Assembly (NCBI RefSeq): GCF_022045235.1
Contig: NW_027266269.1
Coordinates: forward strand, 18,848,001 to 18,912,000
DNA from: Haliotis cracherodii
Taxonomy: Eukaryota
Direction: 5' to 3'
DNA: 64,000 bases
Under the pieces are notes generated by a model that was not told the DNA's origin, ran no database searches, and worked only from the letters and a program-made list of their open reading frames with translations. Positions 5,081 to 53,130 of this stretch are shown piece by piece. Made by a program: the position numbers and the translations under genes. The first letter of the stretch is position 1; every line of letters starts with the position of its first letter.

Positions 5081-6289
5081 AGACAAATTATTTCATGACA
5101 CTGCACTCACTGAACAGCAAGTCCCCATCGTATTCCACAGCCATGCAGAATATCACTCGTGTAGAATTTGCATTTATCTGAGCAGAATTTTTCAAATACA
5201 ATGCAATTTTAACATGCGAGTCTAGAGCGGACTTGTGAACGGGTGTGTGAACGGGTATTTATTTGGTTTGGAAGTGATGTTGACTTTCGTATTATTGCTG
5301 ACCGAAAGTGTCTGTCTGTACGTTTACACTAGTGGTCTCCACATTCACTTCACTATGTTACTCTAGCCGTGAAAAGGTTCATCATAAAAATGCCTGTCCT
5401 AAGTCAAACAGGTGCAAACTACGAAATTTATCAAACTAAGGTTAAAGTTTGCACCACTATGTGCACTATTATCATAATTTGGGTGCAGAAATTACAAAAA
5501 TTGATCGCCAAATTTGTTTTCTTTTTGGTGAGGAATACATGACTGTACATTTTAAGAAACCATCATGCTATAAATATGCTGCCTTTACTCTGTGACCTGA
5601 ACTTGGTATACAACATGTTTCAGGCAAATTTATTAAATGTTCGGGAATCTATCAGGTGGCCACAGTGCATGCAGGAGTCTCACGGTTTCATCTGTGTCTC
5701 GGCCGCCAATAAGTCCATGTCAACTAGGGCAGCAGGCAAATCCAACAGTGAACAGATACACTTCACACACCATGGAGTCATCCGGTCCAACCCAGTGTAA
5801 CCCAGTGTGGGAAGCAGGTGGAGTTTCAAGATGGGTGAGGTTGAAGAGGAATTTGAATTGAGAGAAAAATGGGAAAAAGTACTTGTGCCATGATTCCTGG
5901 AACACTTTTATCTTGACATTGTCAGAGCCTGAAACGAAGACATCTTTGACGATTCCAGGAAACTTTATTTTGATATTGTCGGAGCCTGTAATGAGGACAC
6001 CCTTGATTATTCAAGGACTCTTTTATTTTAAGTGATTACCCATGATGACTTCTTTAAACAGCATTGTTAATGAATTATCAATTGTTCATTAATCTGGAGA
6101 ATTAAATGGGAAACTGTACTGTCTAAATTAACAAGAGTATTGGTTTGAGTTAGAGACAGTAAATGATGTTTAACACTGAAGTCAGCAATAATATTATTCC
6201 AGCTGTATAAGGATGCCTGCATGTTACAAAGTCTAAGTCTGACAAACCAGTGATTCATAGTATGCGCATATATCTACAACATTAGGCAG

Positions 6290-6738
6290 ACACACATGAG
6301 GTCATAGAGACATATTTTGCCCCAGAATCCCCAGAGAGACAAGCAAGATGTCATAGAGACGTATTCTGCCCCAGAATCCTCAAGGAGACAAGCATGAGGT
6401 CATAGAGACGTATTCTGCCCCAGAATCCCCAAGGAGACAAGCATGAGGTCATAGAGACGTATTCTGCCCCAGAATCCCCAAGGAGACCAGCATGAGGTCA
6501 TAGAGACGTATTCTGCCCCAGAATCCCCAAGGAGACGAGCATGAGGTCAAAGAGACATATTCTGTCCCAGAATCTCCAAGGAGACAAGCATGAGGTCACA
6601 GAGACGTATTCTGCCCCAGAATTCCCAAGGAGACGAGCATGAGGTCATAGAGACATATTCTGCCCCAGAATCCCCAAGGAGACAAGCATGAGGTCATAGA
6701 GTCGTATTCTGTCCCAGAATCCCCTAGAGGACAAGCAT
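6290..6738. repeat. Minisatellite, 49-bp unit (~9 copies)
   Basis: Unit GAGACAAGCATGAGGTCATAGAGACGTATTCTGCCCCAGAATCCCCAAG. Confidence 0.95.
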
Positions 6739-7334
6739 GTAACGTCCGTCCAGGAACCAACACAGAGAGACCAGAACCAGCTGAGATGAACCTCAACATC
6801 TCAAAGCAATCCTACCTCAAAAGATACTTAAGTTTACATTGAAACTGAAATATCACTGCTCTGGTACAGCCACAATAGGTGATGTGGGTCTGCTTCAAGA
6901 CTGATGCTGGAATATAAATGAGCATTATTTGCATGAGGTTTGCGATTATCTTGGCCCAGGCCGACATGATAGACGTACAATGATATCGAGATGTGCTCTA
7001 TGATGAGGGAAAAAACACTATGATCGATTATTCATCACTGGGGCTCGGCATGTTTTTATGAAGATTTATTGTCATGGAACACAATCTTATCTCCGACTGT
7101 AGCCATCTCGAGGAGCGGCTTGGAAAGCAAACATCAGGACCTGTGCTGGCATGAGATGCAGGGATTAATCAAGAATGATGTAGATGGAAGTGTATGTGTC
7201 TAAAACGTGGCTCCATTTCCTTTTTTCCCTCATGGAGTTGAAAACTTTTGGAAGAAAAATACATATTTCGTTCAGATAGATTTTGAAGGTGTGCCTTACA
7301 ATTATAGACAGGCTATTCAAACAAGAATCAGAAA

Positions 7335-9736: not shown

Positions 9737-9998
9737 TTTGGTTTGTTTGTTGTTAAACGCCGCACTCAGCATATTCCAGCTATATGACAGCGGTCTGTAA
9801 TTAATCAAGTCTGGACCAGACAATCCAGTGATTGATATCATGATCATCGATCCATGCAATTGGGATCGATGACATGCATCAACCAAGTCAGCGTGTCTGA
9901 CCACCTGATACCGTTAGGCGCCTTTTACGACAAGCATAGTCGCCTTTTACGGCAAGCATGGGTTGCTGAAGATCTTTTCTACCCCGGCTCTTCACGGG
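9737..9998 (-). mobile_element. tRNA-less non-autonomous retroelement (family 3), full length
   Basis: Sense reads CCCGTGAAGA...GGGGTAGAA...TCTTCAGCAACCCATGCTTG...AGCTGGAATA(T)GCTGAGTGCGGCGTTTAAC(AAAC)n. Many dispersed copies; no obvious A/B boxes. Confidence 0.85.
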
Positions 9999-10034
9999 TG
10001 ACATGGATTATAAAGATGAGTCTTGTTATGTATC

Positions 10035-15004: not shown

Positions 15005-15745
15005 GATTCCAGTCTCAAGAGCTCTTAAAGACAAGATTCTATTGCTTTTATAGACTGCTTTCTTATGTCAAGGACTCTTAAACACATTCCTCTAGGATGA
15101 AGGGCTCTTACAGACATACCTCTGGCTTGAAAGGCATATATAGATAGGCTTCTAGTTTCGAAAGTTTGTGAAGACAAACCTCTAGATAAACGGCTCCTAA
15201 AGACAGTAGTTAAGTTTCAAGTGCTCTGAGAGACAAGGTTCTAGTTTCAAGGGTTCTTAAAGGCCAAATTTTAGTTTCAAGACCAATAAGGACAGGAATC
15301 TGGTCTCAAGATTTGTCTGTTTGTTTCTAAATGCCGCACTCAGCAATATTCCAGCAACATGACGACGGTCTGTAAATAATCGAGTCTAGACCAGACAATC
15401 CGGTGATTGATATCATAAGCATCAATCAACGCAATAGGGAGACGATGACATGCATCAACCAAGTCAGTGAGCCTGACCACCCGATCCGGTTAGTCGCCTC
15501 TTACGACAAGCACAGACGCCTCTTACAAGCATGGTTTGCTGAAGACCTTTTCTAACCCGGATCTTCACAGGTATCTGGCTTCAAAAGGTATAAAAGCAGG
15601 CCTCTAGTTTCAAGAGCTCTTTAAGATCAGCCTCTGTCTTCAAGGGATCTTGAAGAGAAGAATTTAGTTTCAAGGCAATAAAGACAGCCATCTGTCTTCA
15701 GGGTCTATAAAGGCCCATAGGTTCAATTCTCTTAAAAGGTAAACC
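15005..15745. repeat. Old degenerate ~31-bp satellite (CCTCTAGTTTCAAGGG..CTTAAAGA..), also at ~13490-13660
   Basis: Recurring TCT(A/G)GTTTCAAG cores; interrupted by a family 3 element. Confidence 0.75.
15313..15571 (-). mobile_element. Family 3 element, full length
   Basis: Similar to the 9737 copy; inserted within a degenerate ~31-bp satellite. Confidence 0.85.
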
Positions 15746-16717: not shown

Positions 16718-16943
16718 CCCTGTGAAGATCCAGGTTAGAATCGGACTTCAGCAACCCACAGGGGGTGACAAATGGGATCGGGTGGTCAGACTTGCTGACT
16801 TGGCTGGTGCATGTCATCGTATCCCAATTGCGTAGATCGATGTAACATCAATGACTGTACTGCCTGGCCCAGACTTGATTATTTACAGGCAGCTGTCTTA
16901 TAGCTGGAATATTGCTGAGTGCAGTGTTAAGAAACAAACAAAA
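16718..16943 (+). mobile_element. Family 3 element, degenerate, plus orientation
   Basis: CCTGTGAAGATCCAGGTTAGAA...AGCTGGAATATTGCTGAGTG...AAACAAAC. Confidence 0.8.
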
Positions 16944-17435: not shown

Positions 17436-17596
17436 TGAGTGAGTATGGTTTAACGCCACTTTTAGCAATATTCCAGCAATATCACGGCCGGGGACACCAG
17501 AAATGGGCTTCACACATTGTATCCATGTCGGGAATCGAACCTGGGTCTTCGGAGTGATGAGCGAACGCTTTAAACACTAGGCTACCCGGCCGCCCC
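17436..17596 (-). mobile_element. Short tRNA-derived SINE (family 1), full length
   Basis: The minus strand has an A-box-like TAGCCTAGTG, a B box GGTTCGATTCC, the GCTGGAATATTGCT...GGCGTTAAAC tail and (ACTC)n. TSD AAAGATGTAG at 17426-17435 and 17597-17606. Confidence 0.9.
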
Positions 17597-22624: not shown

Positions 22625-22813
22625 TGTTGTTTGTCGTTTGTTGTTGAACGCCTCACTCAGCAATATTCCAGCTATATGATGGCGGTCTGTAAATAACCGA
22701 ATCTGGACCAGACGATCCAGTGATTGACATCGTGAGCATTGATCCACGCAATAGTCGCCTGCTATGGCAAGCATGGGCTGCTGAAGATCTATTCTGCCTC
22801 GGATCTTCACGGG
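22625..22813 (-). mobile_element. Family 3 element with internal deletion
   Basis: Both termini are intact; part of the middle is missing. Confidence 0.8.
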
Positions 22814-22819
22814 TCGTTT

Positions 22820-30452: not shown

Positions 30453-30720
30453 TCGGGACAGGGGCTGGATCCAACCAATGACGGGATCCACCTGCATGTC
30501 CGCGGGATGAGGATGGGTCCCAAATCCCCTTAAATGTTGTTTGTATACTTGTTGTTAAATGCCAACTCAGCAATTTTATTCCAGCTATGCAAATAATCAA
30601 GCCTGAACCGCACAAACCAGTGATTGATGTCATGAGCAATGTCCAATGCCATCGGGGTACAGTGACACACATCTCAACCAAATTCCCAAGCTTAACCCGA
30701 TACCCATTCAGTCGCCTTGT

Positions 30721-30985
30721 TCGTGAAGACGCCGGGGTAGAATAGGTCTTCAGCAACCCATGCTTGCCGTAAAAAGGCGACTACGCTTGTCGTAAAAGGC
30801 GACTAACGGGATCGGGTGGTCAGGCTCGCTGACTTGGTTGATGCATGTCATCGATCCCAATTGCATGGATCGATGCTCATGATATCAATCACTGGATTGT
30901 CTGGTTCAGACTCGATTATTTACAGACCGCCGTCATATAGCTGGAATATTGCTGTGTGCGGCGTAAAACAACAAACAAACAAAAA
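30721..30985 (+). mobile_element. Family 3 element (young-looking), nested in an older relative
   Basis: Well-preserved copy, duplicated at ~33359-33623. Confidence 0.85.
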
Positions 30986-33358
30986 CGTACGAGAAGCCGG
31001 GAACCTGTTCCTACCATGAATCCTAAAAGGGTTATTCCACCCTGGCATCTACTCGTGTTTATGACCAGCATCAGATAGTGATTTGCACATGGATGTCTGT
31101 GTGTAAAAAAAACATTCTAAAAACCAACTATCCTGCGTGGGCACCCTGAACCATTAGAATTATGTGTAATCACACAGTGATAAGGACAGGCAATCAGTCG
31201 TGTACACACCCCTCACTTCCATTCATGAATCTTTGATTGCGACAGTTATTTCAATAAAGGCGGAAATTTATCATAAATATGCATAGTGATGTTCTTCGTG
31301 TGAGAGAGTGTCCGGGACTAGAGAAACAAGGCTGTCAGTGGTTGAGAGAATTAAAATCTAAAACTGCACAAACCTTGATTTTCTGGTGTTCTCTCAAAAG
31401 AATCCTCAGGAAAAGGGTATAAAAGATTCCTCAGGAAAGGGGTATAAAAGAATCCTCAGGAAAGGGGTATAAAAGAGTGAGTGAGTAGTTGAGTTGGGTT
31501 TAGCACCACTTAGAGCAGTACGCCAATTATATCACCTCACAAAATGAGGAAGTGATGCAGGTTACAGACAATAAGCACTTTGGTAAAACCCACAAGCATG
31601 GATAGGGTGCTGACAAACCTAGAAACATAATCAGGGCAAACCAGGGCCCAAGGGACAGAACTCTGCAAGTAAAAAGTGTTACAGATGACTGAGCCCCCCG
31701 TAACCCTGGATATGAAAGAAGACATGAGACATGCATGACAGACATGATTCAAGTTTCGTTAGGCGCTGTAAAGAGGGTGGTTGATTTCAAACAGTTGGTG
31801 CTTCATTGAACAAGGGCCAAGTGAAGAAATATTTTGCACATTTATTCCTGATAGAAAACTACCCATTACCATGTAAAAAAATCCTGATGTTTTCAATCAT
31901 ACCAAGGTAAAGACCAAAGCGAACACATAATTTGTAAATTTTCGTGAACTTGCCTGAATTACGTTAATGAAGGTGGTTTACGTTTCATGTTAGGAACCTT
32001 TTCAAATCGTTCAGATTGTGCAAACTGATTTCAATAATCATATCTCTGATATCTTAATTTTAACAGAGTTGATGTATTTTATTGGTGAATAACAGTGTGT
32101 TGGTAAATTATGCAGAAGTACAAACATTCCGGTTAATGTAACATGTCACATTATAAAATCTGAAGTAAACAATTAATGACTCATAAATAATCACCAATCC
32201 TAATTGCAAGTGTTTAGGTTGAATATTTACGATATATCTAAAAGCCGAGCACCAGGCAGGGTAACAAAAAGTACCATCTTTTAACGTCGGGGGTAGAGGT
32301 TGCTCTTTCCACTAGACCATGGAGGCAGTTTAGTGGAGACGGTATACCTAAAAATTCATTGCCTTTTCAAGCCTGTGAGAGCCCTGCTAACTAATGTGTT
32401 AGCTAGGGTAAGATTTCTGATGGTATGTGTTTAGATAGAGCTCCCCTTTCACCCAGCCATCTCACAGCGTGCTTGTCAACTTCAGGCTAACAGAAAACCA
32501 CTAACACAAAACAATGTTTCAGCGAGTAATCCCGAGTGATGTGACGGTCAGAGTCTAGAACCAAAAATGAAGTCAATCATGTCTTACTGTAATGATATAA
32601 ATAAAACCTGAAAGAAATAGTTCAGAGAGCCGAATGGGATTAATTCAATATATCAGAGGTGACCTGTGTGACTCCCAAAGCACATGTTGAGATGTCTGGG
32701 TAGTGTCAGGGGAAATCTGCAGATAGGGCTGGATTTGTTCATTGTGTTCATTGTGGATCCCCTGGATGTCGTGTTTACGATTATTCCACTTTTATGGCGA
32801 CTTGCATGCACATGTGTGTGCATGTACTCGTCTGGTCTAATGCCAGTTTTATAGTGCTTGCCCACTGAGGAACCGTGCAGCAGTTTAACATGAATACCCA
32901 ACTCAGACACAGTATACTGACTCCGAGCTGAAAAGTCCTTGTTTTACCCGACCAATCCTTGTTTTACCCGACCAATCTTTGTTTTACCCCTTAATACCAA
33001 GCGCATGCCAGGGAAACAAGTACCATCTTTAAGTGTCTTCTGGATTGACATGACGTTCTGATCTCCAGGCAGACACTCTAGTCACTGGTCCATGGAGGAG
33101 GTCGGGATAGGGGCTGGATCCAACCAATGATACAATTGGGATCCACCTCCATGGGTCCCAAATCCCCTTAAATGTTGTTTGTATACTTGTTGTTAAATGC
33201 CAACTCAGCAATTTTATTCCAGCTATGCAAATAATCAAGCCTGAACCACACAAACCAGTAATTGATGTCATGAGCAATGTCCAATGCCATCGGGGTACAG
33301 TGACACACATCTCAACCAAATTCCCAAGCTTAACCCGATACCCATTCAGTCGCCTTGT

Positions 33359-33623
33359 TCGTGAAGACGCCGGGGTAGAATAGGTCTTCAGCAACCCATG
33401 CTTGCCGTAAAAAGGCGACTACGCTTGTCGTAAAAGGCGACTAACGGGATCGGGTGGTCAGGCTCGCTGACTTGGTTGATGCATGTCATCGATCCCAATT
33501 GCATGGATCGATGCTCATGATATCAATCACTGGATTGTCTGGTTCAGACTCGATTATTTACAGACCGCCGTCATATAGCTGGAATATTGCTGTGTGCGGC
33601 GTAAAACAACAAACAAACAAAAA
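33359..33623 (+). mobile_element. Family 3 element (duplicate of the 30721 copy)
   Basis: Near-identical to 30721-30985, within the tandem duplication. Confidence 0.85.
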
Positions 33624-36600
33624 CGTACGACAAGCCAGGAACCTGTTCCTACCATGAATCCTAAAAGGGTTATTCCACCCTGGCATCTACTCGTGTTTAT
33701 GACCAGCATCAGATAGTGATTTGCACATGGATGTCTGTGTGTAAAAAAAACATTCTAAAAACCAATTATCCTGCGTGGGCACCCTGAACCATTAGAATTA
33801 TGTGTAATCACACAGTGATAAGGACAGGCAATCAGTCGTGTACACACCCCTCACTTCCATTCATGAATCTTTGATTGCGACAGTTATTTCAATAAAGGCG
33901 GAAATTTATCATAAATATGCATAGTGATGTTCTTCGTGTGAGAGAGTGTCCGGGACTAGAGAAACAATACTGTCAGTGGTTGAGAGAATTAAAATCTAAA
34001 ACGGCACAAACCTTGATTTTCTGGTGTTCTCTCAAAAGAATACTCAGGAAAAGAGTATAAAAGAATCCTCAGGAAAGGGGTATAAAAGAGTGAGTGAGTA
34101 GTTGAGTTGGGTTTAGCACCACTTAGAGCAGTACGCCAATTATATCACCGCGCAAAATGTGGAAGTGATGCAGGTTACAGACGATAAGCACTTTGGTAAA
34201 ACCCAAAAGCATGGATAGGGTGCTGACAAACCTAGAAACATAATCAGGGCAAACCAGGGCCCAAGGGACAGAACTCTGCAAGTAAAATGTGTTACATCAG
34301 ATGACTGAGCCCCCCGTGACCCTGGATATGAAAGAAGACATAAGACATGTATGACAGACATGATTCAAATTTCGTAAGGTGCTGTAAAGAGGGTGGTTGA
34401 TTTCAAACAGTTGGTGCTTCATTGAACAAGGGCCAAGTGAAGAAATATTTTGCACATTTATTCCTGATAGAAAACTACCCATTACCATGTAAAAAAATCC
34501 TGATGTTTTCAATCATACCAAGGTTAAGACCAAAGCGAACACATAATTTGTAAATTTTCGTGAACTTGCCTGAATTACGTTAATGAAGGTGGTTTACGTT
34601 TCATGTTAGGAACCTTTTCAAATCGTTCAGATTGTGCAAACTGATTTCAATAATCATATCTCTGATATCTTAATTTTAACAGAGTTGATGTATTTTATTG
34701 GTGAATAACAGTGTGTTGGTAAATTATGCAGAAGTACAAACATTCCGGTTAATGTAACATGTCACATTATAAAATCTGAAGTAAACAATTAATGACTCAT
34801 AAATAATCACCAATCCTAATTGCAAGTGTTTAGGTTGAATATTTACGATATATCAAAAATACAAATACTGTGTCACGATGCTAGCAGACGTTCGAAAATC
34901 AAACATGGCGCACTTTGCCCGACCTTGGCATAACTTATTGCTATTCTATTATCAACAAAGTTTACATTGCCTTCATATATCATGTATATATGCCTTGGCG
35001 AAAGTTGACGATCTCAATTGTAGAATTTACATTTGTCATTTTCCGTTTAATATGATGAGAGAAAAATAAAAATTAAGACCATGAATTCTGACAGCAATAT
35101 TTCAGTAAGTGCAAAGGTCACCAGATGTGATGCCACAGACAGGGGAAGTCTGCTGATAATCTTTTATAACAAAACAATTACAGTCAATTTTGAAATATTT
35201 CGCCTGTCACATACAGAATAAACACAAATCGCCACATATTATCAGTAATCACCACTAATATGAAATAACAAAGCAATATTCACGATATAATTGGCATAGT
35301 TTTTAATTCATTTGACCCCGCATGCTCCCGTGACCCGGAAACGGTAGACGATGAATCAACACGCCACATGCAAGTTTCTCGGAATCTTTTATTTGAACTT
35401 TTGTTGTTATATAAGGATTACCATTCGATGTTACGCTGAATACAAAGGGATATGGTTCATGTATCTGTGATGTACATGATTTTGTTTTCACTGTCATAAT
35501 TGTGTCCCAGGCAATATGTCTTCAGATGTCATGGATCAGCAATGATCACCCTCCACAACAGGTGCGCACATATAGAGCTTACAAAACATGTTTCAGAATA
35601 GCATTCATGTGATGCCGAATATGATAGGATATATACGCAAGTGTGTGATGTAAAAATCAATAAAATACTACATACATATTTTCAGTGTTAGTTTCTTATT
35701 CAATGTGGGATAGTTGTCCTTTTATGATACATTTATTGATTCTAACAATAACATGATTTTAGAAAATCTCATGGAGCATTTTAAAATTTATTCCATCAAT
35801 ATAGAGACCCCATGATTGTGTATTGATGATAAATTTGTTCATGTTTAATTATTAACAGCTGTTCACAGCTTCTAAAATATTAAGTTAAATTTTTATATTT
35901 AGTAGTTATTCTTTCTACAATGATTGTGTGTATGGACACTAAATATTGGTCAATGCATCAGCACTGTGTTACTGATCAAATTTCAATTATTACCTTTGGT
36001 TTAAAGATATTTTATTCAACAATTATTATCCTTCACCTGAACATCAATCATGTGAATAAGTTACTATTTGATGTCATCATTTAAGTTTAGTATTCCATAA
36101 AAAATAAAGAAATAGATAAGATCCTTTTGAACATATACATAGACAACTCATATGGACATTAATCTTGTGTTTGAAGTGGTTTGTTTCCAAACTAAACAAT
36201 TCTAAAATATAACTTTAATATGAATACGATACATTAATTTCTTGTAACAGCACATGAGATTTTTGTTTGTTTGATCACAAAAACCAGGGTGGCACTTAAG
36301 CTGGTGAGTCAGCCATATATTTATAAGAGAATGTTATCTTTTGAAAAAGGAATAGGGCACATATATAGACGTACATTGACAATTCTTGCAGTTCTGTTCT
36401 GTTGGAGAAAGGTACATGGAAATATCCTACCTTGTGTATTTGTTCAGGGTTCTCACAATGAAATGATGAAATCATCCAATCAATGATCTTCCGATTCAGA
36501 TTGTTTTTGTTTATAATTAATTACATTAAAATTTGCTAATTTTTAGAAATGAAGGAACTTGAGTGTTTTCCTTTCGTCAAAAAACAAAAAATTATGATTG

Positions 36601-39266: not shown

Positions 39267-39530
39267 GATTGGTTGATTTGTTGTTTTACGCCGCACTCAG
39301 CAATATTCCAGCAATATGATGGCAGTCTGTAAATAATCGAGTCAGGATCAGACAATCCAGTGATTGATATCATGTGCATCGATCCACACAATTGGGATCG
39401 ATGAAATGCATCAACAAAGTCAGCGAACCTGACCATCTGATCCCGTTTATTGCTTCCTATGACAAACATAGTCGCCTTTAACGGCAAGCATGGGTTGCTG
39501 AAGACCTTTTCTACCCCGGATCTTCACGGG
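39267..39530 (-). mobile_element. Family 3 element, full length
   Basis: Similar to other copies; ends ...GGATCTTCACGGG on the plus strand. Confidence 0.85.
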
Positions 39531-40328
39531 TAATGACATCCTTTCTTCAGCTTGTTGATGGGGTTAAACTCTTTGACCATGTGGATTAAACATCTCACCT
39601 TGTATCAGAAGGTTTGCGGTTCGAATCACGGGAACATTGTTAAACACTTATCCAGCACTGGAATATTAATACAATTCAAGAAATCAACAATTCACAGAGT
39701 GTTTGGGTTTAACACCTCTTTGATCAGCCGACATATCACCGTATGTCCGATCCAGTTCACCACTGCAGTGAAAGCCACAAGCACGGATGGTAGTATAAAT
39801 GGGATTCACTCTCCAGTAATCTGGTGCCGTATGAGATCAGCGATGTTGCTCAGGGTGCCTCAATCAATCAGTCTGTATATGACACAACACAGATCTGCAT
39901 CTGATCATGACGAGTGTGTCTGCTGATGTTCAACACTCGCAGGGAACTGAGATGAATCGGAGGTGATTCTTTACTTTGTCCCAGACCCAACTGTTGGCTA
40001 AGCTACAAACTCTTCAGACTTCCCACTTCACTCCAATTGATCAGATTTTCAGCCACCCAGGACACAGGATGGTATCTGTAAGTAATCAGGTCTGGACCAG
40101 ACAATCCATTGACTGATATCATGAGCATCGATCTAAACCATTGGGATCTGAAGACCTATTCTAACCGGATCTTCAGCATTCTCTTTTCACATTTTTAGTG
40201 TTGTAGCATTTTCAATAATAACAATAATTGCAGCAAATAACACTTGAGTAACAGGAGTGGGTGTGATCCAAGGAAACTAGTGGTCAATAGTATGAGAACT
40301 GAAAAGTTGTCAGGATACACTCTACAAT

Positions 40329-46554: not shown

Positions 46555-47321
46555 CGTCAGGTCACACAGTCAGTCAGGTCACACGGTCAGTCAGGTCCTA
46601 CGGTCAGTCAAGTCACACGGTCAGTCAGGTCACATGGTCAGTCAGGTCACACGGTCAGTCAGGTCCTACGGTCAGTCAAGTCACACGGTCAGTCAGGTCA
46701 CATGGTCAGTCAGGTCACACGGTCAGTCAGGTCCTACGGTCAGTCAAGTCACACGGTCAGTCAGGTCACATGGTCAGTCAGGTCACACGGTCAGTCAGGT
46801 CCTACGGTCAGTCAAGTCACACGGTCAGTCAGGTCACACGGTCAGTCAGGTCACACGGTCAGTCAGGTCACACGGTCAGTCAGGTCACATGGTCAGTCAG
46901 GTCACACGGTCAGTCAGGTCACACGGTCAGTCAAGTCACACGGTCAGTCAGGTCACAGGGTCAGTCAGGTCACATGGTCAGTCAGATCACACGGTCAGTC
47001 AAGTCACACGGTCAGTCAGGTCACAGGGTCAGTCAGGTCACATGGTCAGTCAGATCACACGGTCAGTCAGGTCACAAGGTCAGTCAGGTCACACGGTCAG
47101 TCAAGTCACACGGTCAGTCAGGTCACACGGTCAGTCAGGTCACACGGTCAGTCAGGTCACACGGTCAGTCAGGTCACACGGTCAGTCAGGTCACACGGTC
47201 AGTCAGGTCACACGGTCAGTCAAGTCACACGGTCAGTCAGGTCACACGGTCAGTCAGGTCACACGGTCAGTCAAGTCACACGGTCAGTCAAGTCACACGG
47301 TCAGTCAGGTCACACGGTCAG
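46555..47321. repeat. Minisatellite, 17-bp unit (GGTCAGTCAGGTCACAC, ~45 copies)
   Basis: Direct inspection; 17-aa periodicity in all three forward frames. Confidence 0.95.
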
Positions 47322-48203
47322 TTCTACTCTAGAATCCCAACAGTGAGACATTCAGCATGGGGTACTGGGGATGTGTTCTACTCTAGAATCCCAACAGTGA
47401 GACATTCAGCATGGGATACTGGGGACGTGTTCTACTCTAGAATCCCAACAGTGACATTCAGCATGGGGTACTGGGGATGTGTTCTACTCTAGAATCCCAA
47501 CAGGGAGACATTCAGCATGGGGTACTGGGGATGTGTTCTACTCTAGAATCCCAACAGGGAGACATTCAGCATGGGGTACTGGGGATGTGTTCTACTCTAG
47601 AATCCCAACAGGGAGACATTCAGCATGGGGTACTGGGGATGTGTTCTACTCTAGAATCCCAACAGGGAGACATTCAGCATGGGGTACTGGGGACGTGTTC
47701 TACTCTAGAATCCCAACAGGGAGACATTCAGCATGGGGTACTGGGGACGTGTTCTACTCTAGAATCCCAACAGTGAGACATTCAGCATGGGGTACTGGGG
47801 ACGTGTTCTACTCTAGAATCCCAACAGGGAGACATTCAGCATGGGGTACTGGGGACGTGTTCTACTCTAGAATCCCAACAGTGAGACATTCAGCATGGGG
47901 TACTGGGGACGTGTTCTACTCTAGAATCCCAACAGGGAGACATTCAGCATGGGGTACTGGGGACGTGTTCTACTCTAGAATCCCAACAGTGAGACATTCA
48001 GCATGGGGTACTGGGGATGTGATCTACTCTAGAATCCCAACAGGGAGACATTCAGCATGGGGTACTGGGGACGTGTTCTACTCTAGAATCCCAACAGTGA
48101 GACATTCAGCATGGGGTACTGGGGACGTGTTCTACTCTAGAATCCCAACAGTGAGACATTCAGCACGGGGTACTGGGGATGTGTTCTTCTCTAGAATCCC
48201 AGC
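47322..48203. repeat. Minisatellite, 54-bp unit (~16 copies)
   Basis: Unit GTTCTACTCTAGAATCCCAACAG(T/G)GAGACATTCAGCATGGGGTACTGGGGA(T/C)GT. Confidence 0.95.
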
Positions 48204-48717
48204 AGGAACATATATAGTTGAAACTATTAGGAAACTAAAAAGCAGGAGTTTATAAAGGAAATTGTATGTTTAGAAAAGAAATTCCGATTTACTTTTATTC
48301 ACATTCTTTTTCATCTCCTCTAGGTCTGTCAGTGACTTTGACATTTAAATCGGTCAAAGGTCAGGCATTCCTCTATGCAGACCATAAAAAATAAAACAGT
48401 AAATACAAACAGCTTCCTTTTCAAAAACTTCTCTCTGAATCATAAAAGTTAGGAATTTTCAGTCCAGTGCTGATGCTCCATGAGGGGATGGCAGGGTCCC
48501 GGGAGAGTGCTTGGGATTTTATTTTTATCAAAAAAATTAACATGTGGTCTGTGGTTAGAGTGGCATGTACTGTCGACTGTACTGTCGATGATGATAATGA
48601 CGACGGTGACCATTATGATGATGTTGAGAATGGTGACAAGTGATGATGATTGAAGCGATGGTGATGGTGATGATAATGTTGACGACAATGATAATGATTA
48701 TTATGTTGATGGTTGAA

Positions 48718-49027: not shown

Positions 49028-49265
49028 TGTTTGTTTGTTTGTTTATTTGTTGTTTAACACCACACTCAGCAATAATCCAGCGATATGACGGCGGTCTGTA
49101 AAATAATCGAGTCTGGACCAGACAATCCAGTGATTGACATTATAAGCATCGATCCACACAATTGAGATCCATGACATGCATCCACCAAGTCAGCGAGCCT
49201 GACCACCCGATCCCTATGGTTTTCTCTTACGACAAGCATGGTCGCCTTTTACAGCAAGCATGGGT
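49028..49265 (-). mobile_element. Family 3 element lacking its 5'-most ~40 bp
   Basis: Present from the (TTTG)n tail through CAAGCATGGG. Confidence 0.8.
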
Positions 49266-52848: not shown

Positions 52849-53130
52849 GAGTGAGTGAGTGAGTTGGGTTTAACGCCGCTTTTAACAGTATTCCAGTTAT
52901 ATCACGGCGTGTCAGCTTAATGTGGGAGGAAAGCCCGAAGCGATGCAGGTCTCAGACGTTTACCACTTCGGTGAAACCCACGAGCACGGGTATGGTGCTG
53001 ACAAACCTAGAAACATAATTTGGGCGAACTGGGATTCGAACCCACAATCATAGGTTTCTGGCGTGCCCAAGGGACGCAACTCTGCACAGCGAATCGCGGC
53101 GCCTTAGACGACTGGGCCACCCGTGCCTCC
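52849..53130 (-). mobile_element. tRNA-Leu-like SINE (family 4), full length
   Basis: The minus strand reads GGTGGCCCAGTCGTCTAAGGCGCC...GTGGGTTCGAATCCCA, resembling tRNA-Leu A and B boxes with an expanded spacer. Tail GCGGCGTTAAACC(ACTC)n. TSD TATTTCAA at 52841-52848 and 53131-53138. Confidence 0.85.

Follow-up and report, generated by a model that had tools for sequence, protein, structure and literature searches.

A LINE-derived SINE head in Haliotis cracherodii with a predicted double-pseudoknot fold that recurs in viruses: a candidate exonuclease barrier

We analyzed a 64,000-nt stretch of the Haliotis cracherodii genome (contig NW_027266269.1, positions 18,848,001 to 18,912,000), referred to below as the window. 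At 30722..30986 of the plus strand the window carries a SINE of ~265 nt, a member of a family marked by target duplications and a sharply defined 5' end. An initial annotation had described the letters at 30721-30815 as the structured head of a tRNA-less retroelement family and had named seven copies. The letters are as described and all seven copies exist, but those listed at 9737, 15313, 22625 and 39267 lie on the minus strand, where the coordinate given marks the 3' tail. The 30721 and 33359 copies are one segmental duplicate (928/939 identical), so the seven named copies represent six independent ones. An additional 5'-truncated copy, absent from that list, lies at 49038. The features of the window copy, followed by the other copies recovered by searching the window, are as follows.

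30722..30986, plus strand: SINE copy, LP-type, first ~4 bases lost (starts CGTG), from sequence
30722..30736, plus strand: predicted stem S1 of pseudoknot 1; the CG left at 30722-30723 pairs with CGGG at 30733-30736
30725-30730 with 30746-30751, plus strand: predicted stem S2 of pseudoknot 1, enclosing the G-run and the conserved AGAATA (30739-30744)
30752..30764, plus strand: predicted hairpin P2 (AGCA/TGCT) with loop ACCCA at 30756-30760, from pairing in homologues
30766..30781, plus strand: imperfect extra copy of hairpin P3, a family-specific tandem duplication, from sequence
30789..30806, plus strand: hairpin P3 (GTCG/CGAC, 7-nt loop) and TAA linker, from sequence
30808..30810, plus strand: predicted 3' strand of pseudoknot 2 (GGG), pairing with the P2 loop, from the partner-swap test
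30811..30928, plus strand: SINE body, no clear Pol III boxes, from sequence
30929..30986, plus strand: LINE-like 3' tail and (CAAA)n, from sequence
30537..30718, minus strand: decayed second SINE copy, head to head with the 30722 copy (69% identity)
33360..33624, plus strand: duplicate of the 30722 SINE copy, inside a 939-nt segmental duplication
9737..9998, minus strand: SINE, full-length
15312..15572, minus strand: SINE, full-length
16718..16942, plus strand: SINE, older, with an internal deletion in the head
22625..22815, minus strand: SINE, internal deletion
39269..39531, minus strand: SINE, full-length
49038..49265, minus strand: SINE, 5'-truncated

The 939-nt duplication is recent (30513-31451 and 33151-34089) and carries two SINE copies in head-to-head orientation. 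The 30721 copy lost its first bases at the junction with the decayed minus copy, and the 33359 duplicate lacks them too; intact copies have CCCG as the 5' strand of S1, and the copy at 30722 retains CG only. Other repeats of the window were recorded as well. Minisatellites of 49 bp and 54 bp (6190-6788 and 47291-48346, minus strand) resemble tandemised heads of an older SINE subfamily; the 49-bp array continues into SINE body and tail, and similar ~50-bp head arrays occur genome-wide. SINEs with a tRNA head and visible A and B boxes lie on the minus strand with tails at 17488, 24410, 28720, 48777 and 56059, and have a LINE-like tail in common with the LP-type SINE but an (ACTC)n end; a second tRNA-headed type has its tail at 52909 (minus strand). 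Unrelated tandem arrays (10046 onward and 22816 onward) start within ~50 nt of SINE 5' ends.

The SINE family is abundant in the genome, which was taken as 1.18 Gb. A pattern for its 5' end gave 15,435 exact matches genome-wide and the reversed control gave none, while sixty spaced 10-kb samples (600 kb) held 89 body-bearing copies, or ~175,000 by scaling. The common 5' start proposed for the family was borne out: 36 of the 89 sampled copies align from positions 1-10, and the others are 5'-truncated or older forms. From 28 near-full copies, 26 were parsed and 16 of these had a TSD of at least 8 nt; the TSD-defined start fell 0-3 nt upstream of S1, before CCCG, in 13 of the 16, confirming that the head marks the 5' end of the SINE. 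Intact copies begin with GA or GG, then CCCG, and end in a (CAAA)n tandem repeat. As the initial annotation had noted, there is no Pol III tRNA head: ARAGORN returned 0 in the SINE, and clear boxes were lacking, with B-box-like strings at one mismatch and A-box-like strings at two mismatches only. The element therefore does not have the tRNA-like head with A and B boxes that defines SINE2 (tRNA-derived) elements.

A published class does have this layout. LP-SINEs (Hdi_LP, Hmi_LP, Lsa_2 and Sgl_LP) include 255-bp Haliotis families (Matetovici et al. 2016, PMC4758252), and their ~70-nt heads recur at the 5' ends of two Nimb LINEs and an RTE, namely Nimb-17_LMi, I-3_DR and RTE-9_CPB (PMC4758252). 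The Haliotis SINE has TSDs, a tandem-repeat tail and no tRNA head, and its own head is homologous to the ~70 nt in Nimb/RTE LINE 5' UTRs, since the same motif lies in the 5' UTRs of LINEs encoding APE, RT and RNase H at two loci, L377 and L345. The LINE-5' origin suggested for the head thus holds in this genome as well. The element is very likely an LP-SINE, judged from shared head and layout. Element type and head sequence are already published as LP-SINE and ‘LP’ domain.

We compared the head with homologues to examine its fold. The ~70-nt head is predicted to form two tandem pseudoknots and a hairpin. In order, the 5' end pairs with a G-run (S1), followed after a 1-nt link by S2 of 7-8 pairs, a loop, P2, P3, a linker and the strand of pseudoknot 2. 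The loop after the 5' strand of S2 ends in AGAAT(A/T) and tolerates long inserts; the linker after P3 is TAA-like and is followed by the strand that pairs with the P2 loop. In 20 homologues (14 animal-type and 6 viral rows), 77/80 cells were paired in S1 (shuffle mean 60.6), 121/140 in S2 and 74/75 in P2 (shuffle mean 46.6), each above all 5000 column shuffles. For pseudoknot 2, Watson-Crick runs with the own partner summed to 76 versus a swap mean of 41.5, a value reached by 0 of 5000 swaps, and in three viral rows (L160, L163 and L158) this knot is weak or missing. These counts lean towards the fold, as the rows were chosen as family-typical and the register was set by hand; the rows are also related, and several trace to shared host data sets. 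For 19 non-viral heads aligned by MAFFT without editing, counting nested stems only, 89.1% of cells were paired versus 25-54% in slid controls, and 50 cells carried a double change versus 18.2 in shuffles. The number of pairs with a double change on that alignment (8 versus 6.9) was not above shuffles.

Within the genome, the main subfamily has AA in S2 facing TT in 97/100 among the matches listed (10,144 in total), and an older subfamily has GG facing CC in 85/100 among the matches listed (213 in total), two A-U pairs of S2 being swapped for G-C; many of the latter matches lie in tandem arrays. Single changes within young SINE copies do not covary: A-to-G variants carried the partner change in 1/100 among the matches listed (128 in total), the background being 138/10,144. 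Neutral decay after insertion gives just such a pattern. Nested folding of the window copy was no better than shuffles (z +0.74), stem S2 also appearing in that nested prediction, and of 29 rows submitted to an automatic parse 27 were parsed, only 15 of which beat at least 149/150 shuffles. The invariance of P3 arises by construction, because P3 served as the search anchor. Conservation across homologues extends to the single-stranded AGAAT and to the P3 loop, and the latter appears to have T-loop spacing. The L080, L083 and L123 families have 15-50 extra nt, partly simple repeats, before AGAATA and keep the stems.

The covariation supports the head as a structured RNA, as had been proposed, but not the H-type topology that came with the proposal. 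Its GAAGAT/GGTCTTC stem is confirmed, as are the GTCG/CGAC hairpin and the tandem duplication of that hairpin. Its crossed pair GGGT/ACCC scored 50 in the 20 homologues versus 47.9 for partner-swap controls, and the closing pair CCCGT/ACGGG scored 40 versus 38.2. The apparent fit of these two pairings arises solely from the use of CCC/GGG by both knots of the SINE family; the strands pair the other way round, the G-run being the partner of the 5' end and the 3' strand that of the ACCC loop. The double change noted in the 22625 copy is present in the sequence, yet the supported fold does not make it a compensatory pair. The homologue collection and covariance model that the initial annotation had called for yielded conserved stems and a model that recovers viral contigs, and in the Rfam comparison the head matched no family. 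Rfam gave 0 matches at gathering on the window and no match to the motif on the window, the viral loci or the LINE motif; with the E limit relaxed to 10 for the element and to 5 for ten homologous loci, only chance matches appeared. Judged against consensus features, the motif did not fit the HDV, twister, pistol, hatchet or hammerhead folds.

An 18-nt exact search for hairpin P3 recovered at least 120 metagenome loci, which by context are animal repeat heads of several families, and five viral contigs. All five viral contigs carry the stem, the G-rich strand and AGAATA upstream of P3, outside the search pattern. Four wider viral scans added three further true contigs amid chance phage matches; looser viral patterns returned mostly chance phage matches and one new true contig. 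A covariance model built on the 19 non-viral (animal-type) heads alone scored the eight viral contigs at 44.6-74.0 bits versus at most 25.9 for chance loci selected by pattern.

The viral contigs are diverse. RdRp matches occur in four of them (L161, L163, L167 and L488), with RdRP_3 (tombus-like) in three of the motif-bearing viruses. Three contigs have RNA-virus-type capsid matches only; L158 and its near-twin L166 have a peptidase-A21 capsid and L156 an S-domain capsid, and a 1217-aa ORF of L156 had no Pfam or PDB match. The remaining contig, L160, is a 212-kb DNA virus in which the motif is intergenic at 9952-10029, ~150 nt ahead of an ORF; this copy has an S2 similar in sequence to that of the SINE and lacks pseudoknot 2. 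In the seven short viral contigs the motif follows the last ORF, in the 3' UTR, and the P3 hairpin lies within ~140 nt of the contig end, which may not be the true end. The motif starts 6, 10 and 23 nt after the last stop in three viruses, and two tandem copies are present in L156 and in L488. The covarying stems and the occurrence of the motif in RNA viruses strongly indicate that it acts at the RNA level, which in our judgment is highly probable.

Matches in prokaryote species genomes numbered nine, of which seven fit the motif and two look like chance. The AT-rich, microsatellite or LINE context of the seven, or their position at contig ends, suggests that they are animal DNA. One (L345, G001:C4:517400-527400) lies in a scaffold of a bacterial symbiont and is a LINE that has kept two intact ORFs; a TSD was sought for it and not found. 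SINE-like pieces occur in six metagenome-assembled genomes (L199, L201, L202, L203, L205 and L207). The L345 LINE and these SINE-like pieces are probably animal DNA in prokaryote assemblies.

A LINE of Haliotis cracherodii carries the same motif. One of the species-genome matches lay upstream of a LINE, whose ORF1 gave 123 matches in the Haliotis cracherodii genome. At 27 of the 30 LINE loci examined the motif lies ~480-780 nt upstream of ORF1. The LINE encodes an endonuclease (APE), RT and RNase H and therefore belongs to the I group; it appears to be Nimb-like and is likely the partner of the SINE. L377 is a full-length LINE with a target duplication, and the 18-nt block at 30937-30954 of the SINE tail is identical to its 3' end, a comparison made with L377 only, other LINE copies having longer 3' UTRs. 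Copies of the LINE cluster densely, for example at C2:20.9-21.75 Mb.

The first base of the LINE opens a 57-nt HDV-like sequence directly 5' of the motif (L377 265-321), which is separate from the motif and absent from the SINE. P1 with a G.U, P2, P3, L3, P1.1 and J4/2 are all present, so that by its fold this segment has the features of an HDV-like ribozyme. Rfam models RF02682 (best, E 0.001), RF00094 and RF01787 match it, all below gathering, and the match ends at the motif. The segment corresponds to G000:C80, about 26204964-26205020, and has ~590 related loci in a young I-group LINE family with intact ORFs; the module of this family has almost no P4. It was kept upstream in 67/67 motif instances (from 69 LINE loci, some overlapping), and the exact junction of module and motif is present in 544 of 588 exact matches to the LINE motif. 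None of the 67 LINE copies starts at the motif, and no hotspot of LINE 5' ends at the motif was seen among 39 heads viewed, including all 13 of the 100 listed that lack the exact junction. Among animal-type loci from the collections, an HDV core upstream of the motif was found in 0/122.

The reading that we favor is that the motif is a barrier to 5'-3' exonucleases that sets the SINE start by trimming, to which we give a probability of about 0.5. Transcripts reading through from host promoters would include the SINE, Xrn1/Xrn2 would degrade the flank upstream of it until halted by the knot, and the LINE enzyme would copy the protected RNA via the shared tail, which would place the start of each new SINE copy at the knot. 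The LINE would have its 5' end generated and shielded by the ribozyme further upstream, so its copies would start 57 nt before the motif. A viral RNA with this fold would be left with a protected 3' fragment, in the manner of known xrRNAs. A barrier thus fits the three settings, since it would set the SINE start, be hidden behind the LINE ribozyme and protect a viral 3' fragment. Published work offers precedents for parts of this scheme: plant-virus xrRNAs arrest Xrn1 at the base of their first stem (PMC12397905), known xrRNAs are generally located in 3' UTRs (PMC10321173), and a 5' HDV fold has been proposed to shield R2 templates from decay (PMC11331408). Like those elements, the motif has a compact pseudoknot fold, here a predicted one, in viral UTR or intergenic regions, but it matches no described xrRNA class (flavivirus, class 3 or coremin), nor any Rfam model of one on the window, the LINE or the viral loci. 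The fold alone does not predict resistance, since ordinary H-type frameshift pseudoknots, with or without an added hairpin, did not stall Xrn1 (PMC10321173). Also against a barrier, trimming to the knot is unseen in the LINE, where it would be possible (0/67), and a LINE that already has a ribozyme would not obviously require a second barrier.

The LINE also bears on two readings put forward in the initial annotation, in which the motif cuts itself or starts transcription at its own 5' edge. Cutting, transcription start or a stop of reverse transcription at the motif predicts LINE copies beginning there, while the actual start is 57 nt earlier and the HDV-like module is kept in every instance; both readings are disfavored on this ground. 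That the head is an internal promoter, perhaps doubling as an RNA structure like trypanosome Pr77 (PMC3383444), is suggested by its 5'-terminal position, the purine start, the want of a tRNA head and the intergenic copy ~150 nt before an ORF in the DNA virus, and a promoter was proposed for LP-SINEs as a suggestion (PMC4758252). A promoter cannot apply in the 3' UTRs of RNA viruses, and conservation lies in the pairing rather than in the stem sequence, so we consider this reading very unlikely. A new self-cleaving ribozyme cutting at the 5' edge of the motif would account for the sharp G start and the compact double pseudoknot, and would supply a cutter to the 122 animal-type loci that are without a known one. 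The HDV ribozyme has the order P1-P4-J4/2-P2, which the order of P2, P3, CTAA and partner strand loosely recalls. However, stem P3 ends with the C of the CTAA linker, the linker varies among LINE copies (TAA, CAA, CGA and AAA), and the supported fold has no P3/L3/P1.1 core. No ribozyme family matches the motif, the Rfam HDV models matching the upstream module only. Such a ribozyme would moreover remove the HDV-like head of the LINE and clip viral 3' ends, which leaves it highly improbable.

The fold might instead bind translation factors or ribosomes and so serve uncapped LINE and viral RNAs as an element for cap-independent translation, which we regard as unlikely. In its favor are the position of the motif between the HDV-like module and ORF1 in the LINE, its presence in the 3' UTRs of the three RdRP_3 viruses (tombus-like viruses are known for 3' translation enhancers) and the conservation of the single-stranded AGAAT and P3 loop. 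The SINE would then keep the fold in order to dock near nascent LINE protein, much as Alu docks near newly made LINE protein through SRP9/14. Such an element has no Rfam match and leaves unexplained the start of SINE families at the base of S1, for which a separate cause would be needed. Less likely again is a module that binds protein or stabilizes ends, or an s2m-like mobile passenger, exchanged between transposons and viruses without blocking an exonuclease. R2 protein does bind pseudoknotted RNA (PMC12222951), but a shared binding site is unparsimonious because the LINE and viral polymerases are unrelated, and the stems have turned over with compensation, unlike passively copied sequence.

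Taken further, the exonuclease-barrier reading would make the motif an undescribed class of xrRNA traded between animal retrotransposons and both RNA and DNA viruses. An entire group of SINEs, and some LINEs, would dispense with a promoter or ribozyme, host 5'-3' decay would excise their RNA from read-through transcripts, and ~10^5 genomic copies could be decay barriers in host RNAs. We offer this broader proposal tentatively, as somewhat less probable than not. If true, a decay barrier would be a third route to a 5' end besides promoter and ribozyme, and the motif the first xrRNA in a cellular mobile element as far as literature searches reach; searches of open-access text found no description of an xrRNA in a retrotransposon. 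Even if the barrier function fails, the motif is an uncatalogued structured RNA common to animal transposons and several virus groups. The HDV-like module on the LINE is a second item of interest and a built-in control. Searches of open-access text yielded no description of the fold, of the motif in viruses or of a Nimb-like LINE bearing an HDV-like module; the exact P3 strings did not occur in the papers searched, and the sections of PMC11481361 covered mention neither LP-SINEs nor ribozymes.

Among the closest known systems is the LP-SINE itself, also a short TSD-flanked element with a LINE-derived head replacing the tRNA, 255 bp there and ~265 here. The scallop ‘Nimb-17 homology’ segment (Fig. 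S2 of PMC4758252) has the same P3 loop and TAA, and its S2 is different but, by eye, paired. How SINEs without a Pol III head gain a precise 5' end was left open in that paper, which suggested a promoter for the LP head, called for experiments and drew a parallel to the L1Tc promoter and ribozyme (PMC4758252); its covered sections describe no head fold, viral copies or upstream ribozyme. HDV-like ribozymes are known at the 5' ends of R2, RTE, Ingi/L1Tc, LOA, R1 and R4 elements (Kojima 2018, PMC5786205), and the Haliotis LINE likewise has such a sequence at its first base, while Nimb lies outside the six clades listed in the part of that paper covered. Among viral elements, the class 3 xrRNA of plant viruses (PMC12397905) is also a compact pseudoknot near the start of the 3' UTR and is capped by a T-loop, which the inferred T-loop spacing of the P3 loop recalls. 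Coremin likewise needs a putative pseudoknot and a downstream hairpin and is also found in dsRNA viruses (PMC10321173, PMC10520033), but the motif differs from the coremin 20-mer and loop consensus (PMC10520033). From both of these the motif differs in sequence and secondary structure, in that its 5' end is itself a pseudoknot strand and a second pseudoknot follows. Finally, s2m is, like the motif, a short RNA motif near the 3' end that is common to unrelated virus families; s2m is a 41-nt hairpin conserved in sequence, whereas the motif is predicted to be a ~70-nt double pseudoknot with covarying stems, and it also heads retrotransposons.
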